Of a stretch of DNA of 64,000 bases, positions 7,236 to 34,279 are shown one piece after another (the stretch's first letter is position 1; each line of letters opens with the position of its first letter). A program made the translations under genes and the position numbers. The notes beneath the pieces are model-generated. The model ran no database searches. It saw only the letters and a list, made by a program, of their open reading frames with translations, and was not told where the DNA came from. Origin of the DNA: Dictyostelium discoideum (Eukaryota); assembly GCA_000004695.1 (NCBI GenBank), contig CM000152.2:3168001-3232000 (forward strand), read 5' to 3'.

Positions 7236-7548
7236 ATGGGTCTTGATATTCAAACAGAAATCGATAAAATTGTAATTGAAAAGGTTAAACCAGAAGTTGA
7301 ATACTATGACGTTATGGGTGGGTCACATAGATGGGAAGTCAAAGTGCACGACCATGGTAAAGTTGCATTAGTCGATACTATGCCAAGATTAGCACCAGTT
7401 GGTCAAACCGCCGATTTCTCAATTTGTCAAGCAGCAAGAGTGTCATATGGTGCCGGTACTAAAAAAGTCACTGAAGATAAAGGTTTAATTCGTTATCTTT
7501 ATAGACATCAACATACTTGTAAGTATATAAATAAATAAATAAATAATG

Positions 7549-24875: not shown

Positions 24876-25504
24876 ATGAAATTACTTTTATTATTAGTTA
24901 GCATTGTTTTATCAATTAGTTTAGCATCATCAATTGTTGTTATTCCATATTCATATCCATTATATAAACAAGTAAGTTTCTTAAAAAAAAAAAAAAAAAA
25001 AAAAAGAGGAAATAAAAGATTCTAACACCAAAAAAAAAAATAAAAAAAAAATAGTGTGATAGTCGTTGGGGAGGTAATGAAATTATTAATCAAACAATTT
25101 GTGATGTAGGTTGTTTAATGTCATCTTGCAGTATGGCAATTGCTGGTAGAGGTATTACACTTAATAATGTTGTTTCAACACCAGGTTCACTCAATTCTTG
25201 GTTACAAGCTAATAATGGTTATGTAGGTGATGATCTTTTAGAAGAGATTGCTTTAACTAGAGTTTCACCATCAATTGAATGGGTTGGTTCATATTCTGCA
25301 GCTGATTTCACTATGGATCAAGTTGTAGATATGATCAATAAACAAACCATTGTTATCATTAATGTTTTACAAGGTGCTCATTTCGTTTTGGCTGTTGGTT
25401 ATGATCAATCAAATTCTTTATTCTATGTAAATGATCCAGGTTTTGATACTCTCACCTACACTTATGCTGATGTTGTTGGTTATCGTATTTTCAATATGAA
25501 TTAA
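24876..25504 (+). CDS. Secreted papain-fold peptidase, C39-like (Peptidase_C39_2-like). Exons: 24876..24971 (signal peptide), 25055..25504.
   Basis: Exon 1 reads MKLLLLLVSIVLSISLASSIVV... with a GTAAGT donor. Exon 2 reads CDSRWGGNEIINQTICDVGCLMSSCSMAIAG...GAHFVLAVGYDQSNSLFYVNDPGF. The Q..C..[SG]C-small-M/L block and the downstream HF[VI]V..GYD....Y.NDP block match the nucleophile and His regions of bacterial C39-like peptidases. The assignment is from motif memory only. Confidence 0.5.
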
Positions 25505-25514
25505 AAAGAAAACT

Positions 25515-25547
<33 letters not shown>

Positions 25548-25670
25548 CAATAAAAAAAAAAACAATAAAAATAAAAAACTAAACATGTATAGTGTTTGGT
25601 TTTTAATTGTTTTGCATTCATTTTTTTTTTTTTTTTTTTTTTTTTTTCCTAAACACTTTTTAGTACAACC

Positions 25671-25709
<39 letters not shown>

Positions 25710-26119
25710 CATAAAGAATTTTTTATATTAATAATTGTATTGGTTAATAATTTTTAAAATAGATAACAGATTAATTTCTTTTTATTCATTTTTTTTTAAT
25801 AAATAAAAAGTAACATAACATGTTTGTGGTTTATTTTCAAGAATATGGTTCCAAACATTTTTTTTTTTTTTTTTTTAAAAAGGATATAATATTATTATTA
25901 ATCATTTGATTTCTATAATTATAAGAAATGAATACTTTGTATCATAATAATATTTTTTTAAAAAAAAAATGAATAATTAAAAAATAAAAAAAAGGTATTT
26001 AAATGAGGTTTTAATTTTTTTTTTTTTTAATTATAATTCTCATATAATTTTATTAATATTTGTTTTTATAGTTTTTTTTTTAAAACCTTTTTATTAAAAT
26101 TTTAAAAACAGACAAAAAA

Positions 26120-26593
26120 ATGAGATCAATCCTTATTTTATTAAGTTTATTATTAACTATTGCATTTGCATCAGCAAGTTTCCCATACCAATGTGGTCCA
26201 TATAGTTGTCAATTTGGTCAAGTTTGTAGAATTGATAATGGTGTTTCTAATTGTATTCCAATTAATGATTGCCATGAAGTTTCATTATCAACAAAAGTAG
26301 TTGGTACTTGGGTAGATGGTTCGCGTGGTAATAAAAGATTCACTCAATATGATATTACAATCACAAATAATTTAAATACAAATATTAAACAAATTTACAT
26401 TGCCACTGATTACACTTTAAGATTAAGAGATCATTCAAATAACTCAATTTGGAATGTTAACCTTTTACCAAATGGTATCCTCACTCTTCCATCATACCAA
26501 CCATCAATCAATGCTCATGCTTCCTTTACTTTTGGACTCATTATTGAAGGTACTCAACCTGCAAATTTAAATGTTTTATCAGTTTCTTTCTAA
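26120..26593 (+). CDS. Small secreted protein, copy 1 of 3. Signal peptide, then a 6-Cys knot, then a CBM2/CBM49-like carbohydrate-binding beta-sandwich.
   Basis: 157 aa. The N-terminus reads MRSILILLSLLLTIAFASA. The Cys knot is QCGPYSCQFGQVCRIDNGVSNCIPINDC. The C-terminal domain has the CBM2a-like spacing W.DG....F..Y.ITITN...I..IYI.....L......IWNV....NG.L.LP........A.FTFG.I.EG..P.NL. Nearly identical copies lie at 28112 and 30023. Confidence 0.6.
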   Translation: MRSILILLSLLLTIAFASASFPYQCGPYSCQFGQVCRIDNGVSNCIPINDCHEVSLSTKVVGTWVDGSRGNKRFTQYDITITNNLNTNIKQIYIATDYTLRLRDHSNNSIWNVNLLPNGILTLPSYQPSINAHASFTFGLIIEGTQPANLNVLSVSF

Positions 26594-27243
26594 ACCATAT
26601 ATCCATTTTAAATTAATCAAAAAAATACCATAATAAATAATTTATTATTTATTTTATTTATTTTATTTTATTCTTATTTTATTTAATTTTATTTTGTTTT
26701 ATTTTTATTTTTTTTTTTTTTTATTTTATTTTATTTTATTTTATTTTTTTTTTACAATAATGATACTAATATTAAAAATTAATAAAAAAAATCTTAAATT
26801 ATCTTGTGTCATATGAATGATATCATTGGTGCAAGGCAAAAGTGAAGTAACTTTTCAAAAGTTGACGAAGGGTGATTTTTTTATTTGGAGGATTTTTTCT
26901 AAAAAAAAAAAAAAAAATAAAAGAATAAAATAAAAAAAATAAAAAAAAAAATATTTTTAGAATTTTTTAAAAAAAAAGTCAACCTGGGATCAAGATATTT
27001 TTAATTCAAATAATTGAAATGATAAAAATTCTGGTAGGCAAAAGCAATCACAAATATCTAAAAATTATTTTTAAAAAAAAAAATAAAAAAAAAAAAAATG
27101 GTTTTTTTTTTTAATATTTAAACCCATTATTTTTATTTTTTAATTTTTATTACATCATCATTCATTTCAAATAAAATAATTTTTTTTAACATTACCTCTT
27201 TTCAGTATTATTCAAATATCCTTTAAATCAACCAAATAACAAA

Positions 27244-27319
27244 ATGAAATTAAACTTTATTGGAGGCCAAAATCGTCAAGGACCAACTACCTCAAGTAAC
27301 AAACCAAGTGGAAGATCAG
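27244..27319 (+). other. Conserved orphan mini-exon (ATG...GGQNRQGPTTSSNKPSGRS|GTAAGA), copy 1. Putative first exon of an unidentified or alternative transcript.
   Basis: An ATG-initiated 25-codon frame ends exactly at a canonical GTAAGA donor. The same peptide and donor context recur in the other two repeat units. No downstream partner exon was found in-frame for copies 1 and 2. Confidence 0.3.
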
Positions 27320-28111
27320 GTAAGATATCTCAACTCTCTCTATCTCTCTCTCTCTCTCTAAAACAATTAATAAATAATAAACCATTACTGACATTTATAA
27401 AAATTAAAAAAAAAAAAAACAAATAAAAAAAAAAATTAAAAAAGTTTTCTTTGCATAAATAGTATAAAACCCTTACGCGCGATTATTTTTAATTATTAAA
27501 TTAATAATAAAAAGTTAAATGAACATTTTAGAATATATTAAACCCTAATTTGTTATTCATTCAATATTTTTCAATAATCATTAATTATTTAAATAATTAA
27601 GTTTTTATTATTAGTTTAATAATTTCCAAATATTTTTTATATTTCAAAAAATAAAAAAAATAAAAAAAAAAAAATAAAAAAAAATAAATTAATTAAATCG
27701 AAAAACATATAATGTTTTTTTTTTTTTTTTTGCTGGAAAAATAAAAAAAATTAAAATTTGTTTTGGGTGGGATCTATTTTTTTTTTTTAAATAACAATTA
27801 TTTGATACTAGCTTTTATTATTCAAAAAAAAAAAAAAAATGTAAGGAGGTAATACATCTTGAGATTGTACCATCTATTATTTAAAAAAAAGAAATTTTAT
27901 ATTATTAATTACTTGATTTCTAAATTAATAATAAATGAATATTTGGTGTCATAGGTATTGAAGGAAAATATTAAAAAAAAAATAATAATAAAAAAAAAGG
28001 TATTTAAAGGTTTAAATAATTATTAATTCTAAATAATTAAACATTCAAATATTAATTTTTATTAAAGCTATAAAAACAAGGTATTAAAAAAAAAAAAGAA
28101 ATCTTATTAAA

Positions 28112-28585
28112 ATGAGATCAATCCTTATTTTATTAAGTTTATTATTAACAATTGCATTTGCTTCAGCAAGTTTCCCATACCAATGTGGTCCATATAGTTG
28201 TCAATTTGGTCAAGTTTGTAGAATTGATAATGGTGTTTGTAATTGTATTCCAATTAATGATTGCCATGAAGTTTCATTATCAACAAAAGTAGTTGGTACT
28301 TGGGTAGATGGTTCACGTGGTAATAAAAGATTCACTCAATATGATATTACAATCACAAATAATTTAAATACAAATATTAAACAAATTTACATTGCCACTG
28401 ATTACACCTTAAGATTAAGAGATCATTCAAATACTTCAATTTGGAATGTTAACCTTTTACCAAATGGTATCCTCACTCTTCCATCATACCAACCATCAAT
28501 CAATGCTCATGCTTCTTTTACATTTGGTTTCATTCTTGAAGGTACTCAACCTGCAAATTTAAATGTTTTATCAGTATCTTTCTAA
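28112..28585 (+). CDS. Small secreted Cys-knot + CBM2/CBM49-like protein, copy 2 of 3.
   Basis: It is 157/157 aa alignable with copy 1, with a handful of substitutions (S43C, N108T, L141F, I143L). The flanking non-coding DNA is also conserved. Confidence 0.6.
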   Translation: MRSILILLSLLLTIAFASASFPYQCGPYSCQFGQVCRIDNGVCNCIPINDCHEVSLSTKVVGTWVDGSRGNKRFTQYDITITNNLNTNIKQIYIATDYTLRLRDHSNTSIWNVNLLPNGILTLPSYQPSINAHASFTFGFILEGTQPANLNVLSVSF

Positions 28586-29150
28586 ACACCTATCATTTTA
28601 AGTTAATCAAAAAAACACCATAATAAATAATTTATTATTTATTTTATTTTATTTTTTTTAATTTTATTTAGTTTTATTTTATTTTATTTTAAAACGTTGT
28701 AATAATTTAAAAAACATTATTTAAATCGTTATTTTTTTTCTATTTTTTTTTTTTGAAATGTATTAATATTTAAAATTAATAAAAAAAATCTCAATTTATC
28801 TTGTGTCATATGAATGATATCATTGGCACAAGGGAAAAGTAAAGTAACTTTTAAAAATATCAGGTGATTTTTATTTATTTTTTTATTTGGATTTTTGACA
28901 ACCTGGGATCAAGATATTTTTAATTCAAATAATTGAAATGATAATTTGGGTTGGTAAAAGCAATCACAAATATCTAAAAATTATCTAAAAAAATAAAAAA
29001 AATAAAATTTTTTTTTTTTTTTTAATATTTAAACCCCATTATTTTTTTTTAGTTTTTATTACATCATCATTCATTTCAATAAAATAATTATTTTTAACAT
29101 TACCTCTTTTTTTAATATTCAATAATCCTTTAAATCTGCCAATTAACAAA

Positions 29151-29226
29151 ATGAGAACAAGCTGGACAGGTGGCCAAAATCGTCAAGGACCAACTACCTC
29201 AAGTAACAAACCAAGCGGAAGATCAA
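29151..29226 (+). other. Conserved orphan mini-exon (MRTSWTGGQNRQGPTTSSNKPSGRS|GTAAGA), copy 2.
   Basis: See 27244..27319. The N-terminal 6 codons differ. The GGQNRQGPTTSSNKPSGRS block and the donor are conserved. Confidence 0.3.
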
Positions 29227-30022
29227 GTAAGATATTATATTACCCCTCCAACAAATTATTAATTAAACAATCATTACTAACATTTTTAAAAATAAAAAAT
29301 TAAAATAAAATAAAATAAAAAAGTTTTCTTTGCATAAATAGTATAAAACCCTTAAGCGCAATTATTTTTAATTACTAAATTAATAATAAAAAGTTAAATG
29401 AACATTTTAGAATATATTAAACTCTAATTTGTTATTCATTCAATATTTTTTAATAATCATTAATTAATTTTTAATGAGTATTTTAATAATTTAAAATGTT
29501 TTTTATATTTCAAAAATATAATAAAAAAATAAAAATAATAAAATAATAAAATCTAAATACATTTGTAATGTTTTTTTTATTATTTCTGGAAAAAATAAAA
29601 AATGAATAAAATAAATAAAATTTGTTTTGGGTGGGTTCTATTTTTTTTAAAACACCAATTATTTTGATATTAGCTTTAACATCTATTATATTAATTTTTT
29701 AAAATATTCTGGAAAAAAATGTAAAGAGGTAATAGATCTTAAGATAGTACCATCTATTATTTAATAAATGGTAAAATGGAAACTTTTTATTATTAATTAC
29801 TTGATTTCTAAATTAATAATAAATGAATATTTGGTGTCACGGGTGTTAAAGAAAATATTAAAAAAAAAAAACAAAAAAAAAAAAAAAATAATTTAAAAAA
29901 AAAAAAAAGGTATTTAAAGTTTTTAAATTATTAATTCTAAATAATTAAATATCAATAAAAATATTTATTAAAGCTATAAAAACAGGTATTAAAAAAAAAA
30001 TTTTATTTAAATAATTATTAAA

Positions 30023-30496
30023 ATGAGATCAATTCTTATTTTATTAAGTTTATTATTATCAATTGCATTTGCATCAGCAAGTTTCCCATACCAATGTGGT
30101 CCACATAGTTGTCAATTTGGTCAAGTTTGTAGAATTGATAATGGTGTTTGTAATTGTATTCCAATTAATGATTGCCATGAGGTTTCATTATCAACAAAAG
30201 TAGTTGGTACTTGGGTAGATGGTTCGCGTGGTAATAAAAGATTCACTCAATATGATATTACAATCACAAATAATTTAAATACAAATATTAAACAAATTTA
30301 CATTGCCACTGATTACACTTTAAGATTAAGAGATCATTCAAATAACTCAATTTGGAATGTTAACCTTTTACCAAATGGTATCCTCACTCTTCCATCATAC
30401 CAACCATCAATCAATGCTCATGCTTCCTTTACTTTTGGACTCATTATTGAAGGTACTCAACCTGCAAATTTAAATGTTTTATCAGTTTCTTTCTAA
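30023..30496 (+). CDS. Small secreted Cys-knot + CBM2/CBM49-like protein, copy 3 of 3.
   Basis: It is near-identical to copies 1 and 2 (T13S, Y28H). Its downstream flank has diverged from that of the other two copies. Confidence 0.6.
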   Translation: MRSILILLSLLLSIAFASASFPYQCGPHSCQFGQVCRIDNGVCNCIPINDCHEVSLSTKVVGTWVDGSRGNKRFTQYDITITNNLNTNIKQIYIATDYTLRLRDHSNNSIWNVNLLPNGILTLPSYQPSINAHASFTFGLIIEGTQPANLNVLSVSF

Positions 30497-30891
30497 ACCA
30501 TCAAAACAAAAAAAAAAAAAATACCATAATAAATAATTTATTATTTATTTCATTTCATTTTATTTTATTTTTAATTTATTTTTTATTTCATTTCATTTTA
30601 TTTTATTTTATTTTAATATATTTTATTTTATTTTATTTTATTATATATTATTTTTTTTTGAATTTGTTTTTAGAAATGTTTATTTAAATTTATAAATTTT
30701 TTTTTAAGGGAAAAAAAAAATAAAAAGATATTTTAAATCTATGAAAACAAAAAAAAATCAGGCATATCAGTTTTTGATTGCGCAATATTTTCAAAAAAAA
30801 AAAAAATTAATAGAAATTATTTGGAAAAAAGTGGTTTTATTTTTCTTTTTTTTCCACAAATCCAAAAATATCTGGGTCGATCATATTTATA

Positions 30892-30923
<32 letters not shown>

Positions 30924-31015
30924 AATAATTTTATTTTTTTTTTTGGGTTTTAAATTTTTTTTTTTTATTTTATTTTTTTTCTTTTTTATACTTTTCAAAA
31001 ATTAGTTAATATAAA

Positions 31016-31127
31016 ATGTTCCCAAATAGTAACGGCCCAAACAAGATGAAAGCACTTGTTGCCCCATCGAATTCATCTACCACATCCAAAACAAATAACA
31101 ACAATTTACCCCCAAATGGAAGATCAA
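31016..31127 (+). other. Diverged orphan mini-exon (MFPNSNGPNKMKALVAPSNSSTTSKTNNNNLPPNGRS|GTGAGT), copy 3.
   Basis: The DNA has diverged but still keeps ATG...GGAAGATCAAG|GT. Phase 1 would splice in frame to the TGTCAG| acceptor at 32273-32274 inside codon 3 of the 32265 gene (intron about 1.15 kb). This is speculative. Confidence 0.25.
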
Positions 31128-31504
31128 GTGAGTTTTTTTTTTTTTTTTTTCCTCCAAACACACAAACACTAATTGTATAAAATTAATAAAAACTAATATT
31201 AATCATAAAATTTTTTTTATTTTTTTATTTTATTTTCTTCAGTTTTTGGTCCATAAAACAGTATAGTGAAACCGGATTACCTATTTACATTTAATAAATA
31301 AAGATGTAAATCAAAATGTAAAATTAAATTTATATATTTTTTTTATTTTTATTTTTATTTTTTATTTTTTTTTTATTTTTATTTTTTAAAATAGAAAAAG
31401 AAAAATTCTGTTTTTGGATGAAATACAACTTAAAGGTATATCATGACAATGATGGGAATTTTGTTGAAACTTAATTCTTCAACTGTTGACGGTATTGAAT
31501 TTTT

Positions 31505-31622
31505 GGTTAAATAATAATGATTTTTTTGTTGATTGAATTTGCTGAATTTTATTTTAAATAATTAAGTTTTTTAAATAAAATTCAGCAAATTCCACCAAGT
31601 GAAAAATCATAATTATTTAACC
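31505..31622. repeat. Long inverted repeat / hairpin. The perfect 20-bp arms GAATTTGCTGAATTTTATTT (31535..31554) and AAATAAAATTCAGCAAATTC (31572..31591) extend to imperfect arms of about 50 bp.
   Basis: The reverse complement of the right arm matches the left arm for over 45 of about 55 positions. The loop is about 17 nt of A/T. Confidence 0.85.
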
Positions 31623-31735
31623 AAAAAAATCAATGATCAAGTTTTTAATTTTTAATATGGATTTAATATATAAAAATTGAGCACCCAAAAATACAAAAAA
31701 ATCATATAAAATATAAAAAAAATGAATGTAACCAT

Positions 31736-31767
<32 letters not shown>

Positions 31768-32264
31768 CTAATTATTTATATGTTAATTTATTTCCTCTAT
31801 TTTCGTATACTAAATTCATATTTAAAAAATAAAATTAAAAAATAAAATAATTATCTTGATTTCTCAAAAAAATAAAAAAAAAAAAAATTAAAATTAAAAA
31901 ATCATTTTTTTTTATTTTTTTTTATTTTTTTAATTTTTTTATTTTATATAAAATCATTTTTTTTATATTACACACCACAATTGCATGTTCTATTTCTATT
32001 TTTCTCTTCTATTTCATTAATTTTTTTTTTTAAAACACTAACTAAATTAAAAAAAAAAAAATTAAAAAATTAAAAAAAAAAAAAAAAAAAATTTTAAAAA
32101 AAATTATAAAAAAAAACACACACAATTTTAATTTTACACACCCGAACAAATATACGTAATACCAAAGAAAATTTTATTTTTATTTTTTATTTTTTTTATT
32201 TTTTTAGTTCATTAAATAAATAAAAATAAATAAAAATAAATAGACAAATAAATAAATAAATAAA

Positions 32265-34279
32265 ATGTCAGATAAAGAAATCGAAGATAATGAATTTGAA
32301 AATGAAGAAGAAGAAGTAGAGGAAGAAGAAGAAGAAGAAGAAGAAAATGCTATATTTACAAATGAAGAAGAAGAAGAGGAAAAAAAAGATATAATGGATG
32401 AAATTAAAGATAGATTTAAAGAAGCAAATTTTGATGAATTTGATGAAACAGAGATTATTAATAATGGTAAAGAATTAATTAAACAATCAAATATATTATT
32501 AGAAGAGATTAAAGAATTGGAAAGTGGTAAAGAGTTATATCAACATAGTAAACAATTGGTTGATACGGTATTAAAGAAACAAGAAGCCAAAGAGTTGATG
32601 GAAAAAGGGTTGAATATATTGACAGAGGTAAAACAAAATCAAGAGGCACAAGCATTGATTGGTGAATGTAAGAACTTTATCGACCTATTCAGTAAGGAGG
32701 ATAAAGTTCAATCAATCATTCAACAGGGTAAAGAGCTATTGGAGGGAATGAAGGACGAAAACGGCGAATTCAATCTCACCTCGACTAAAGCCTCGTTAAA
32801 TAGAGAAGCCATTGAATCCCTATTCGCCCAAGGTTCCACCATCTTTAAGGAGTTTAATGAGAATGATCAAAATTCACTCTACTTGGATAAAATGAAAAAG
32901 TTATTCTTTGATTTAAAAGAAGCAGAATCAACTCGTATCACTTTATTAAATGGTATTGCTGAGGGTAAGAAATGGGTTGAATCATTAAAAGAAAAAGATC
33001 CACAAATTAAAAGTTTAGTTGATGAAGGTGAACAAATCTTTAATCAAATAGCATCTAATCCTGAAGTATCATCACTCTTTAATGATAGTAAAAAAGTTTT
33101 TGAAAATCTTTTAACTTCTGAAACAAAATTAGATCCATCTTCACCTGAAGTATGTTAAAAAATTATAATAATAATAATTATAATTATAATTATAATTATT
33201 ATAATAATTCTAATTTTTTTTTTTTTTTTTTTGAATTATATTATAAAGTTTAAAGTATTAATTGAAAGAGGTGAAAAAATTGCAGGTGATTTAAAAGAAC
33301 AATTAAAATCAAATAAATTAGTTGGTGAAGTAACTCAAAGAGAAGATGTTAAAATATTTTTAGAAAAAGGTAATAAATTCATTTCTGAAGTTAAATCAAA
33401 AGAACAATTAATTGATTTCTTAAAACAAAATAAAGAGTGTGTATTTTTTTTTTAAAAAAAAAAAAAAATGTTTTTTTTTTAATAATACTAATATTATTTA
33501 TTTTTATTAAATTTAGTTTTATAAAAGAAATTAAAAATACAATTGTACCATTTATTACAGATCAATTATTAAAAGTACAAATACCAACAGTTAATGGTAT
33601 TACAAAAGGATTTAAATATGAATTATCAAATTTAGTATTTGCAGGTTTAAATATACCACCAGAGGGAGTCGATGTTGAATTTAGTGAAACCAATAGTATA
33701 ACGGCATCAGTATCAGGGTTCACTGCACAATTAAAGAATTTCTCATGGTCATATAAACAAGAGGGCTTCCCATATTTAAAGGATCAAGGTCTTGCTAGTG
33801 CAAATTGTCAAAAGGGTTTCACATCATTGACTTTTGATATTGAAACTAATAAAGAAACCAATACACCAGAGATTAAAATTACAAATATCGTTTTTAAAAT
33901 TGAGAATTTGGAAGTATTGGTTCAAGAATCTGGTAAAGTTAAATGGCTTTACAATTATTTGATTTCAAAGTTTAGTGAATCAATTAAAGAAGTTGTTGAA
34001 AATAAAATTAAAGGTACAATCACTGGTCATATCAATACTTTATCAACTAAAATTAATCAAATCGTTGGTCAATATTGGAATAAATTAATTGATAAAATTA
34101 AATCTCCTTCTTCAAATTCAACTTTAAATTCACCATCACAATCTGAAAATAAAATTACTGAATTAAATAATGAAAATAATGAAAATAATAATAATAATAA
34201 TAATAATGATGAAGATAGTGAAAAAAAAGAATGTAAAAACAAATCTGATGAAAAAGAAGAAATTAAAGTTGTATCATAA
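32265..34279 (+). CDS. Acidic coiled-coil N-terminal region followed by a BPI/LBP/CETP-like lipid-binding (BPI-fold) domain. Exons: 32265..33149, 33249..33436, 33517..34279.
   Basis: Exon 1 ends ...SSPE|GTATGT. Exon 2 (acceptor ATAAAG at 33248) carries FKVLIERGEKIAGDLKEQLK...FLKQNK and ends with a GTGTGT donor in phase 2. Exon 3 (acceptor ATTTAG at 33516) starts D-FIKEIKNTIVPFITDQLLKVQIPTVNGITKGFKYELSNLVFAGLNIP, a BPI N-terminal domain pattern, and runs through a helical ...IKGTITGHINTLSTKINQIV. All phases are consistent. The ORF track lists three separate ORFs. Confidence 0.6.

Follow-up and report, generated by a model that had tools for sequence, protein, structure and literature searches.

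A 64,000-nucleotide stretch of Dictyostelium discoideum AX4 chromosome 3 (GenBank assembly GCA_000004695.1, contig CM000152.2, forward-strand positions 3,168,001 to 3,232,000; hereafter the window, with positions counted from its first letter) carries three near-identical protein-coding genes arranged head to tail. An exact-sequence look-up matches their open reading frames (ORFs) residue for residue to three known AX4 proteins, which are, in order, stalk-specific protein B (staB), stalk-specific protein A (staA, synonym pDd26) and the product of DDB_G0280277, named somC by Forbes et al. 2022 (PMC9117722). These genes were already known, along with their CBM49 domain and their expression late in stalk development, and the published timing fits what is described here. 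The original prediction, made from the sequence alone, read the locus as a tandem triplication of a unit encoding a secreted, putatively polysaccharide-binding matrix protein; that interpretation is essentially right, for a feature that is not new. For two further aspects of the locus, a mosaic pattern of gene conversion across the array and a new reading of small ORFs in its spacers, no prior report was found in the literature searched.

The sta array

Each of the three ORFs is 474 nt long, encodes 157 amino acids and lies on the forward strand (Table 1). The periods between unit starts are 1992 bp from copy 1 to copy 2 and 1911 bp from copy 2 to copy 3, and both the starts and the periods are those first proposed. 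The window is extremely A/T-rich, with a G+C content of 13–36% per kilobase. In a self-BLAST of positions 25000–32500, three long matches are collinear and stand well above the A/T low-complexity background: 26117–26860 against 28109–28857 (91.5% identity), 26980–28757 against 28899–30662 (84.1% over 1851 nt) and 26117–26753 against 30020–30658 (94.3%), all with E = 0. The tandem triplication of the sta unit is confirmed. Copy 3 is homologous to the other units at high identity as far as about 30680, beyond which there is only weak similarity around a third small gene, so the array spans about 25890 to about 30680. A tblastn search for a fourth copy inside the window finds only these three.

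The relationships among the copies depend on which part of the unit is compared. The coding sequences (CDSs) differ at 6 nucleotides between copies 1 and 3, 13 between copies 1 and 2 and 15 between copies 2 and 3, which makes copies 1 and 3 the closest CDS pair; they are also the closest in the proximal 3′ flank. All six of their CDS differences are confined to nt 12–159. The corresponding protein differences number 3, 4 and 5, slightly more than the 2–4 substitutions originally counted. In the three-unit alignment, CDS identity is 97–100% except over the final ~90 nt, where copy 2 is only 87–89% identical to copies 1 and 3. The earlier view that copies 1 and 2 are most alike therefore fails for the CDS and for the promoter, where copies 2 and 3 are closest, and holds only downstream of about 26770. 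The shared blocks outside the genes are present, some a few nucleotides from where they had been placed. The block ATCTTGTGTCATATGAATGATATCATTGG has exact copies at 26801 and 28798 (given as 26795 and 28791), and CAACCTGGGATCAAG...GATA has exact copies at 26980 and 28899 (given as 26980 and 28901). For the upstream block (given as about 25898, 27913 and 29813), the copies at 27913 and 29801 are exact, and the one at 25906 departs from them at 7 of 39 positions.

A CBM49 protein with a Cys-rich N terminus

The three proteins were searched against Pfam-A with hmmscan at E ≤ 1. CBM49 (PF09478, gathering cutoff 23.4 bits) is found at residues 55–142, covering profile positions 2–79 of 80, with 53.4 bits for staB, 56.3 for staA and 53.4 for somC. 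The only other return is a weak TILa match, and there is no hidden Markov model (HMM) match to CBM_2 (PF00553), on which ground membership of the CBM2 family is rejected. When 16 dictyostelid homologues are aligned, the candidate aromatic residues of a cellulose-binding face are strongly conserved: W64 and W111 never vary, and Y77 and Y126 hardly do. Two of the distant homologues entirely lack the N-terminal module. An AlphaFold model of staA built on this alignment has a mean predicted local distance difference test (pLDDT) score of 87.5, rising above 89 over the CBM49 domain. It places a helical signal sequence at residues 2–19, four short strands in the Cys-rich module (residues 23–47) and then a beta-sandwich. 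The best Foldseek matches in the PDB are mainly CBM2 cellulose- or chitin-binding domains, including EngD (3ndy_E), Cellulomonas fimi domains (6qfs and 1exg) and a Streptomyces domain (2rtt), with template modeling (TM) scores of 0.57–0.63 normalized on the target. No solved CBM49 relative turned up when PDB sequences were searched with a profile. By its sequence profile the C-terminal domain is CBM49, and as modeled its fold is CBM2-like. Of the two affinities first proposed, CBM2a or CBM49, the second holds at 53–56 bits and the first survives at the level of fold only.

The N terminus looks like a signal peptide, as expected of the secreted protein originally proposed: it has hydrophobic residues at 3–16 and an A-S-A motif, both read by eye. 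Cleavage after A-S-A would leave a mature protein of about 137 amino acids with no catalytic domain.

Six Cys residues (25, 30, 36, 43, 45 and 51) follow and are kept in most of the 16 homologues. In staB, Ser replaces Cys43 (C43S, window 26246–26248), leaving its N-terminal module with five Cys, an odd number. Among the 15 members listed of the 90% identity cluster, this change is found only in the AX4-line staB. The hmmscan found no cystine-knot or other curated Cys-rich family above threshold; the TILa match is below threshold and confined to copy 1 (E = 0.026, 15.1 bits against a cutoff of 27), and the PDB profile search gave one nonsignificant match, to an eggshell Cys-rich protein (E = 0.24). 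A cystine knot is unsupported by the model as well, which gives the four short strands only. The six-Cys knot of the original prediction finds no support, since no knot family is recognized and staB has only five Cys.

Expression in the stalk

Kin et al. 2018 describe staA as marking terminal stalk differentiation and note that many late stalk genes have products that contain cellulose-binding domains and are likely builders of the stalk wall. In the listed rows of supplement 5 of that study, all three genes fall in the stalk-specific set. Expression in transcripts per million (TPM) at 20 h, at 24 h and in stalk is 30.5, 82 and 854 for staA; 61, 73 and 3961 for staB; and 6.5, 31 and 1235 for DDB_G0280277. 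Values in cup, spore, vegetative, prestalk and prespore samples are near zero in the same rows (maximum about 1.6 TPM). A comparison with developmental RNA-seq had been suggested with the original prediction, and these rows agree with it: the genes are on only at culmination, in stalk cells. A somC promoter–lacZ fusion is active in all of the mature soma, i.e., stalk, disc and cups (Forbes et al. 2022, PMC9117722). At the protein level, a life-cycle proteome (2026, PMC12821622) detects StaA in fruiting bodies only and StaB in culminants and fruiting bodies, annotates staA as inducible by differentiation-inducing factor (DIF) and names staB as one of the proteins "directly shown to bind cellulose." The matrix polysaccharide-binding role first put forward is in line with all of this: the exact identity of the genes, their stalk-specific expression at 20–24 h and the listing of staB as a cellulose binder.

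Probable small two-exon genes in the spacers

The spacers between the sta genes are conserved, as had been noted, and what is conserved in them is organized around small ORFs with splice signals. Footprinting was done on five spacers from three species, i.e., spacers 1 and 2 of D. discoideum, both spacers of D. cf. discoideum and spacer 2 of D. citrinum. The best-conserved blocks (26989–27022, 27133–27174, 27261–27287, 27440–27472 and 27485–27538) cluster around the small ORF of spacer 1. AX4 annotation has an unspliced hypothetical protein in each spacer, DDB_G0280387 and DDB_G0280389; a diverged homologue, DDB_G0280279, lies just past the array. The two-exon models proposed for them are given in Table 1.

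Across the five spacers, the start context ACAAAATG, the stop and the donor, GGAAGATCA(A/G) followed at the junction by GTAAGATAT, are invariant. A TACTRAC branch site is conserved, as is the acceptor AAAG/TTTTCTTTGCATAA, and the region that reads AAAG before the junction and TTTTCTTT(G/T)CATAA after it is invariant. Variable columns make up 66% of the intron versus 28% of the exon, and the indels found inside the ORF, of 3 and 6 nt, keep the frame. In the window the splice-junction pattern is found three times, where 0.03 occurrences would be expected. Exon 2 would supply the last four whole codons, with the codon of the [VI] residue spanning the junction. The predicted products of the spacer genes are 29 amino acids long and end in GRS[VI]FF[AS]. 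For AX4 genes 1, 2 and 3 the C termini read GRSVFFA, GRSIFFA and GRSIFGP. Taken together, the predicted peptides are 29–41 amino acids long and hydrophilic, with a GP-N-R/K-Q/M core and a C terminus of the form G-R/K-S-[VI]-F-[FG]-[AP].

In the case of small gene 3, the donor, acceptor and stop are conserved in three species, and D. citrinum has a 1-nt indel just past the proposed stop; the 54-amino-acid AX4 model of DDB_G0280279 implies a noncanonical junction shifted by 1 nt. As this diverged gene past the array shows, what was originally duplicated was a unit of one sta gene and one small gene. Upstream of copy 1, at about 7299–7413 of its array locus (L003), D. cf. discoideum carries a further diverged small gene (…SGKSVFFA). 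The family is seen only beside the sta array, in the three D. discoideum-complex species examined; there are no matches at the D. purpureum locus or beside the dispersed fourth sta copy described below.

The small ORFs are probably real spliced genes, although this is unproven. The competing view is that they are not genes at all. On that view the conserved blocks act on the neighboring sta genes as enhancers or insulators, or are relics in decay, and the hypothetical proteins annotated in AX4 are spurious. Several results lean that way. Variable sites in exon 1 fall 6, 8 and 9 times at the three codon positions, with no third-position excess; a profile search of 5.8 billion proteins yields the three AX4 entries only; and spacer 1 of D. 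citrinum entirely lacks the element. No expression evidence was found either, the three gene identifiers being absent from the main text of the literature searched and from the listed rows of one supplement. An exact look-up of the spliced peptide models in the protein collection gave no match. Against a nongenic origin stand the invariant start context, donor, acceptor and stop with the conserved TACTRAC, the excess of variation in the intron over the exon, the 3- and 6-nt indels, and the recurrence of the same architecture in the diverged third gene and in the fourth gene of D. cf. discoideum. On balance a nongenic origin is the lesser possibility, though one with appreciable weight, and it carries more weight than the other three alternatives considered in this work. 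If real, the microgene family might represent a so far undescribed kind of developmental peptide or of small regulator, coamplified with stalk matrix genes, a suggestion that is tentative and on present evidence doubtful.

Three further features of the spacers are recorded here. An imperfect (CT)n microsatellite at 27330–27362 falls within the intron proposed for small gene 1 and is absent from the other four spacers. The block at 27485–27538, presumed 3′ untranslated region (UTR), is 97% identical between spacers 1 and 2 and lies within a concerted stretch at about 27419–27566. Finally, AAACCCATTA at 27115–27125 and AAACCCCATTA at 29028–29038 lie about 120 nt upstream of the small-gene ATGs. 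These, with ACCCATTA near 27118 and 29030, are similar to the upstream sequence element of Dictyostelium noncoding RNA genes (DUSE), and the likeness may be coincidence; no noncoding RNA model matched at these sites.

Relatives of the Sta proteins and the choice of ligand

The founding CBM49 is the module of the tomato cellulase SlCel9C1 (SlGH9C), which binds crystalline cellulose (Urbanowicz et al. 2007, as cited in PMC6541295 and PMC12821622). It belongs to the same PF09478 family as the Sta domain. The tomato module is a C-terminal appendage of a GH9 cellulase, whereas the Sta proteins have a Cys-rich N-terminal module and no catalytic domain. Another parallel is offered by the Luke lectins of Acanthamoeba castellanii, which like the Sta proteins are secreted, nonenzymatic amoebozoan CBM49 wall proteins, in their case of the cyst; they bind cellulose and are made during terminal wall formation (PMC6541295). 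Luke lectins have two to three CBM49 domains with Ser/Pro spacers, whereas a Sta protein has one CBM49 and the six-Cys module, so that multivalency of Sta, if any, would need the Cys module or oligomerization.

Bacterial CBM2a domains (C. fimi Cex/CenA, 1exg and 6qfs; Clostridium cellulovorans EngD, 3ndy) match the predicted beta-sandwich with TM scores of about 0.6 and E values from 1e-4 to 7e-3, at 13–18% sequence identity. With identity this low and no CBM_2 HMM match, CBM2a is a relative by fold or clan, and Sta is not a member of its family. Within D. discoideum itself, St15, ecmC, ecmD, ecmF, ecmG, ecmL and CelB also carry CBM49 and belong to the extracellular matrix (Wang et al. 2001, as cited in PMC6541295; PMC12821622), and their protein peaks at culmination or in the fruiting body (PMC12821622). 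These other CBM49 matrix proteins are mostly larger, multidomain or encoded by dispersed single genes, whereas the Sta proteins come from a conversion-homogenized tandem array.

The best explanation of the whole, that staB, staA and somC encode small secreted cellulose-binding stalk proteins, is held with high confidence. An alternative is that CBM49 here binds a different polysaccharide, chitin-like or a matrix polymer rich in galactose or GalNAc, and that the proteins are not associated with cellulose. Several of the top structural matches do come from chitinases or GH20 enzymes or are CBM2 domains that bind chitin, and the case for cellulose is drawn from sequence, model and literature. The founding of CBM49 on a crystalline cellulose-binding module, the listing of staB as a direct cellulose binder and the coincidence of expression with the cellulose-walled stalk all speak for cellulose, and a different ligand is improbable. 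The cellulose reading has points on the debit side. The presence of chitin-binding CBM2 domains among the Foldseek matches means that the fold alone leaves ligand specificity unfixed. Cellulose binding by staB goes back to one sentence in PMC12821622, with the primary data not traced, and the role of the N-terminal module is conjectural. In addition, copies that are 97–99% identical make reads and peptides hard to assign, so per-copy RNA-seq and proteomic values may be blurred.

The sta genes are silent until culmination and then very strongly transcribed in stalk cells, and the copy 3 promoter is active in basal disc and cups as well. Under the cellulose reading, the exported proteins would bind the crystalline cellulose of the stalk tube and the stalk-cell walls through a face of the CBM49 domain. 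By way of the Cys-rich module they may coat or bridge microfibrils, and the module may serve as an anchor.

An old array under gene conversion

Three-copy arrays are also present in D. citrinum and D. cf. discoideum, flanked by the same Peptidase_C39_2 and LBP/BPI-like genes. D. purpureum has a single gene, 66% identical, in a different gene neighborhood, and is therefore uninformative on the origin of the array. The CDSs differ by 6–21 nt within species versus 25–36 nt between species; the mean number of synonymous substitutions per site (dS) is 0.099 within versus 0.235 between species, and the ratio of nonsynonymous to synonymous rates (dN/dS) is about 0.12. Species-specific substitutions are spread through the copies. 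For example, S9G, S20T, Y28Q and V61I are common to every D. citrinum copy listed, and N40K is found in its tandem copies and in one further entry that, by locus-tag spacing, is probably the dispersed copy.

A four-taxon scan of site patterns, with units 1 and 2 taken from D. discoideum and from D. cf. discoideum, gives a mosaic. Concerted and orthologous patterns number 1 and 6 in the upstream region (25899–26120), 14–15 and 0 in the CDS, 2 and 17 in the spacer (26832–27419), and 5 and 0 in the block at 27419–27566. This mosaic points to gene conversion acting on an old array, with the CDS as the main tract and a second short tract in the spacer. Positional signatures are found across species: spacer 1 small ORFs begin with MKLNFIGG and those of spacer 2 with MRTSWTGG or MRISWIGG, and the copy-1 promoters of D. 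discoideum and D. citrinum have copy-specific motifs in common. Within the AX4 array, staB and somC are identical from CDS nt 160 on and yet differ in their flanks, which resembles a conversion tract. As judged from these comparisons, the array already existed before D. discoideum, D. cf. discoideum and D. citrinum separated, and recurrent conversion, mainly confined to the CDS, holds the proteins 97–98% identical. The ongoing gene conversion suggested in the original prediction is borne out in this three-genome comparison, both by the closer CDSs within species and by the mosaic. One result cuts against a strict form of this conclusion: whole-spacer identity within species, at 79.6%, is slightly above the orthologous 76–78%, so that some homogenization leaks outside the CDS and conversion is not strictly limited to it.

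The clustering of paralogous CDSs by species would also be expected if the arrays arose by independent recent triplications, with the likeness of the copies that of young duplicates. The variable structure of the arrays, i.e., the 925-bp first period in D. citrinum and the extra fragment and frameshifted middle copy in D. cf. discoideum, can be read the same way. However, spacer signatures and copy-1 promoter motifs that keep their position across species, the excess of orthologous over concerted sites in the spacer (17:2) and upstream (6:1), and the conversion-like identity of staB and somC between differing flanks largely refute independent triplication, which we regard as very improbable. 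An assembly artefact, such as the expansion of a single gene or the stacking of haplotypes, has nothing for it beyond the general risk in A/T-rich repeats and can be excluded: the three genes are all present in a second deposited D. discoideum assembly (GCA_054883475.1, 99.7% identical to the window over 20.5 kb), arrays occupy the syntenic site in two other species, the copies differ at 6–15 CDS sites with spacers about 80% identical, and staA (CAA30707.1) and staB (CAA73552.1) have separate database entries, the old staB entry also with Ser at the copy-1-specific position 43.

The arrays of the other species differ in detail. The first spacer of D. citrinum is short, and D. cf. discoideum has a truncated sta fragment beside the C39-peptidase gene (L003 1735–1956) and a frameshifted middle sta copy whose frameshift the annotators bridged by an intron (L003 10001–10509). 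Together with the extra small gene, the fragment and the frameshifted copy show that the array undergoes birth-and-death turnover.

Q54VM7 is a fourth paralogue, nearly identical to the others, and differs from staA by 3 amino acids and 16 nt. Its gene is on the opposite strand about 9 kb to the left of the window start (locus L005, 6001–6474), at a distance of about 35 kb from the array, and shares with the array units only the CDS and about 100–200 nt of flank. By accession numbering it is probably ecmL (DDB_G0280245), which has 14113 TPM in stalk. The probable D. citrinum counterpart of the dispersed copy, placed by locus-tag spacing, carries D. citrinum-specific substitutions, and conversion thus seems to reach the dispersed copy. 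The three tandem copies and the inverted fourth may supply gene dosage for a burst of matrix synthesis.

Promoters and flanking features

Promoters were aligned for 10 copies from three species. In all tandem copies of the three species, a distal block, ATTATTAAT..TTGATTTCTA..TAATAAATGAATATTTGGTGTCAT, lies about 200 nt upstream of the ATG and a TATA-like element, GGTATTTAAAGG, about 110 nt upstream of that ATG; the distal block of staB is the most diverged version. Both elements are candidate stalk-specific cis-elements. Copies 2 and 3 have the closest promoters, about 80–89% identical in the two 100-column windows nearest the ATG, and only 0.51 in one A-rich, gappy window further upstream. 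The escape of the promoters and most of the spacer from conversion, and their divergence, suggest that the copies differ in regulation and not in product. Conversion would keep the products uniform, and promoter divergence would give the copies different expression domains.

Among the neighbors, the gene to the left belongs to the Peptidase_C39_2 family, with its last exon in an ORF at 25118–25504 on the forward strand, and is conserved in all three species. The gene to the right, starting at about 32265, is a weak member of the LBP/BPI/CETP family. Downstream of the array, 31494–31634 forms a near-palindrome of 141 nt that is 84.5% self-complementary. ARAGORN found no tRNA in the window, and Rfam gave nothing at gathering score there; at E ≤ 1 over 25700–31800 the only Rfam match is a nonsignificant mir-3047-like one at 31532–31593 (E = 0.29, 23.9 bits against 53).

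Table 1 Features of the sta array (positions in the window)
Feature	Position	Strand	Evidence or remarks
staB 5′ intergenic region and promoter, left array edge	25890–26119	+	Diverged distal block at ~25893–25950; TATA-like GGTATTTAAA at 25994–26003
staB (copy 1), stalk-specific protein B	26120–26593	+	Exact to Q54VL1 / XP_641344; five Cys and CBM49
Conserved blocks upstream of small gene 1 (26989–27022, 27133–27174), candidate promoter	26980–27174	+	Footprinting; exact repeat 26980/28899
Small gene 1 (DDB_G0280387)	27244–27458	+	AX4: unspliced, 60 amino acids, exact to Q54VL0
Small gene 1, proposed model	exon 1 27244–27319; intron 27320–27444; exon 2 27445–27458		Predicted 29-amino-acid product MKLNFIGGQNRQGPTTSSNKPSGRSVFFA
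Block 3′ of small gene 1, presumed 3′ UTR	27485–27538	+	46/54 columns invariant in five spacers
staA promoter	27885–28111	+	Distal block TTGATTTCTAAATTAATAATAAATGAATATTTGGTGTCA at 27913; TATA-like GGTATTTAAAG at 27999–28009
staA (copy 2), stalk-specific protein A, synonym pDd26	28112–28585	+	Exact to P08797 / XP_641346; six Cys and CBM49
Small gene 2 (DDB_G0280389)	29151–29337	+	AX4: unspliced, 50 amino acids
Small gene 2, proposed model	exon 1 29151–29226; intron 29227–29323; exon 2 29324–29337		Predicted 29-amino-acid product MRTSWTGGQNRQGPTTSSNKPSGRSIFFA
somC promoter	29773–30022	+	Distal block exact at 29801; TATA-like element at 29909–29919
somC / DDB_G0280277 (copy 3)	30023–30496	+	Exact to Q54VK7 / XP_641348; six Cys and CBM49
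3′ flank of copy 3, right edge of high-identity repeat	30497–30680	+	Homologous to copy 1 and 2 flanks
Small gene 3 (DDB_G0280279), diverged homologue just past array	31016–31256	+	Three-species alignment
Small gene 3, proposed model	exon 1 31016–31127; intron 31128–31242; exon 2 31243–31256		Predicted 41-amino-acid product MFPNSNGPNKMKALVAPSNSSTTSKTNNNNLPPNGRSIFGP

Implications

The triplication itself matters little as a finding, the genes, their domain and their expression being already in the annotation and the literature. An array with homogenized coding sequences and divergent promoters does affect how per-copy RNA-seq, proteomic and knockout data are read for genes in wide use as stalk markers. 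Reads and peptides map across the sta copies, and single sta knockouts are probably buffered by the other copies. DDB_G0280387, DDB_G0280389 and DDB_G0280279 probably need reannotation as a family of small spliced genes. For the sta genes themselves, conversion that acts on the CDS and leaves the promoters alone would offer a clean case in nature of identical proteins subfunctionalized through regulation.

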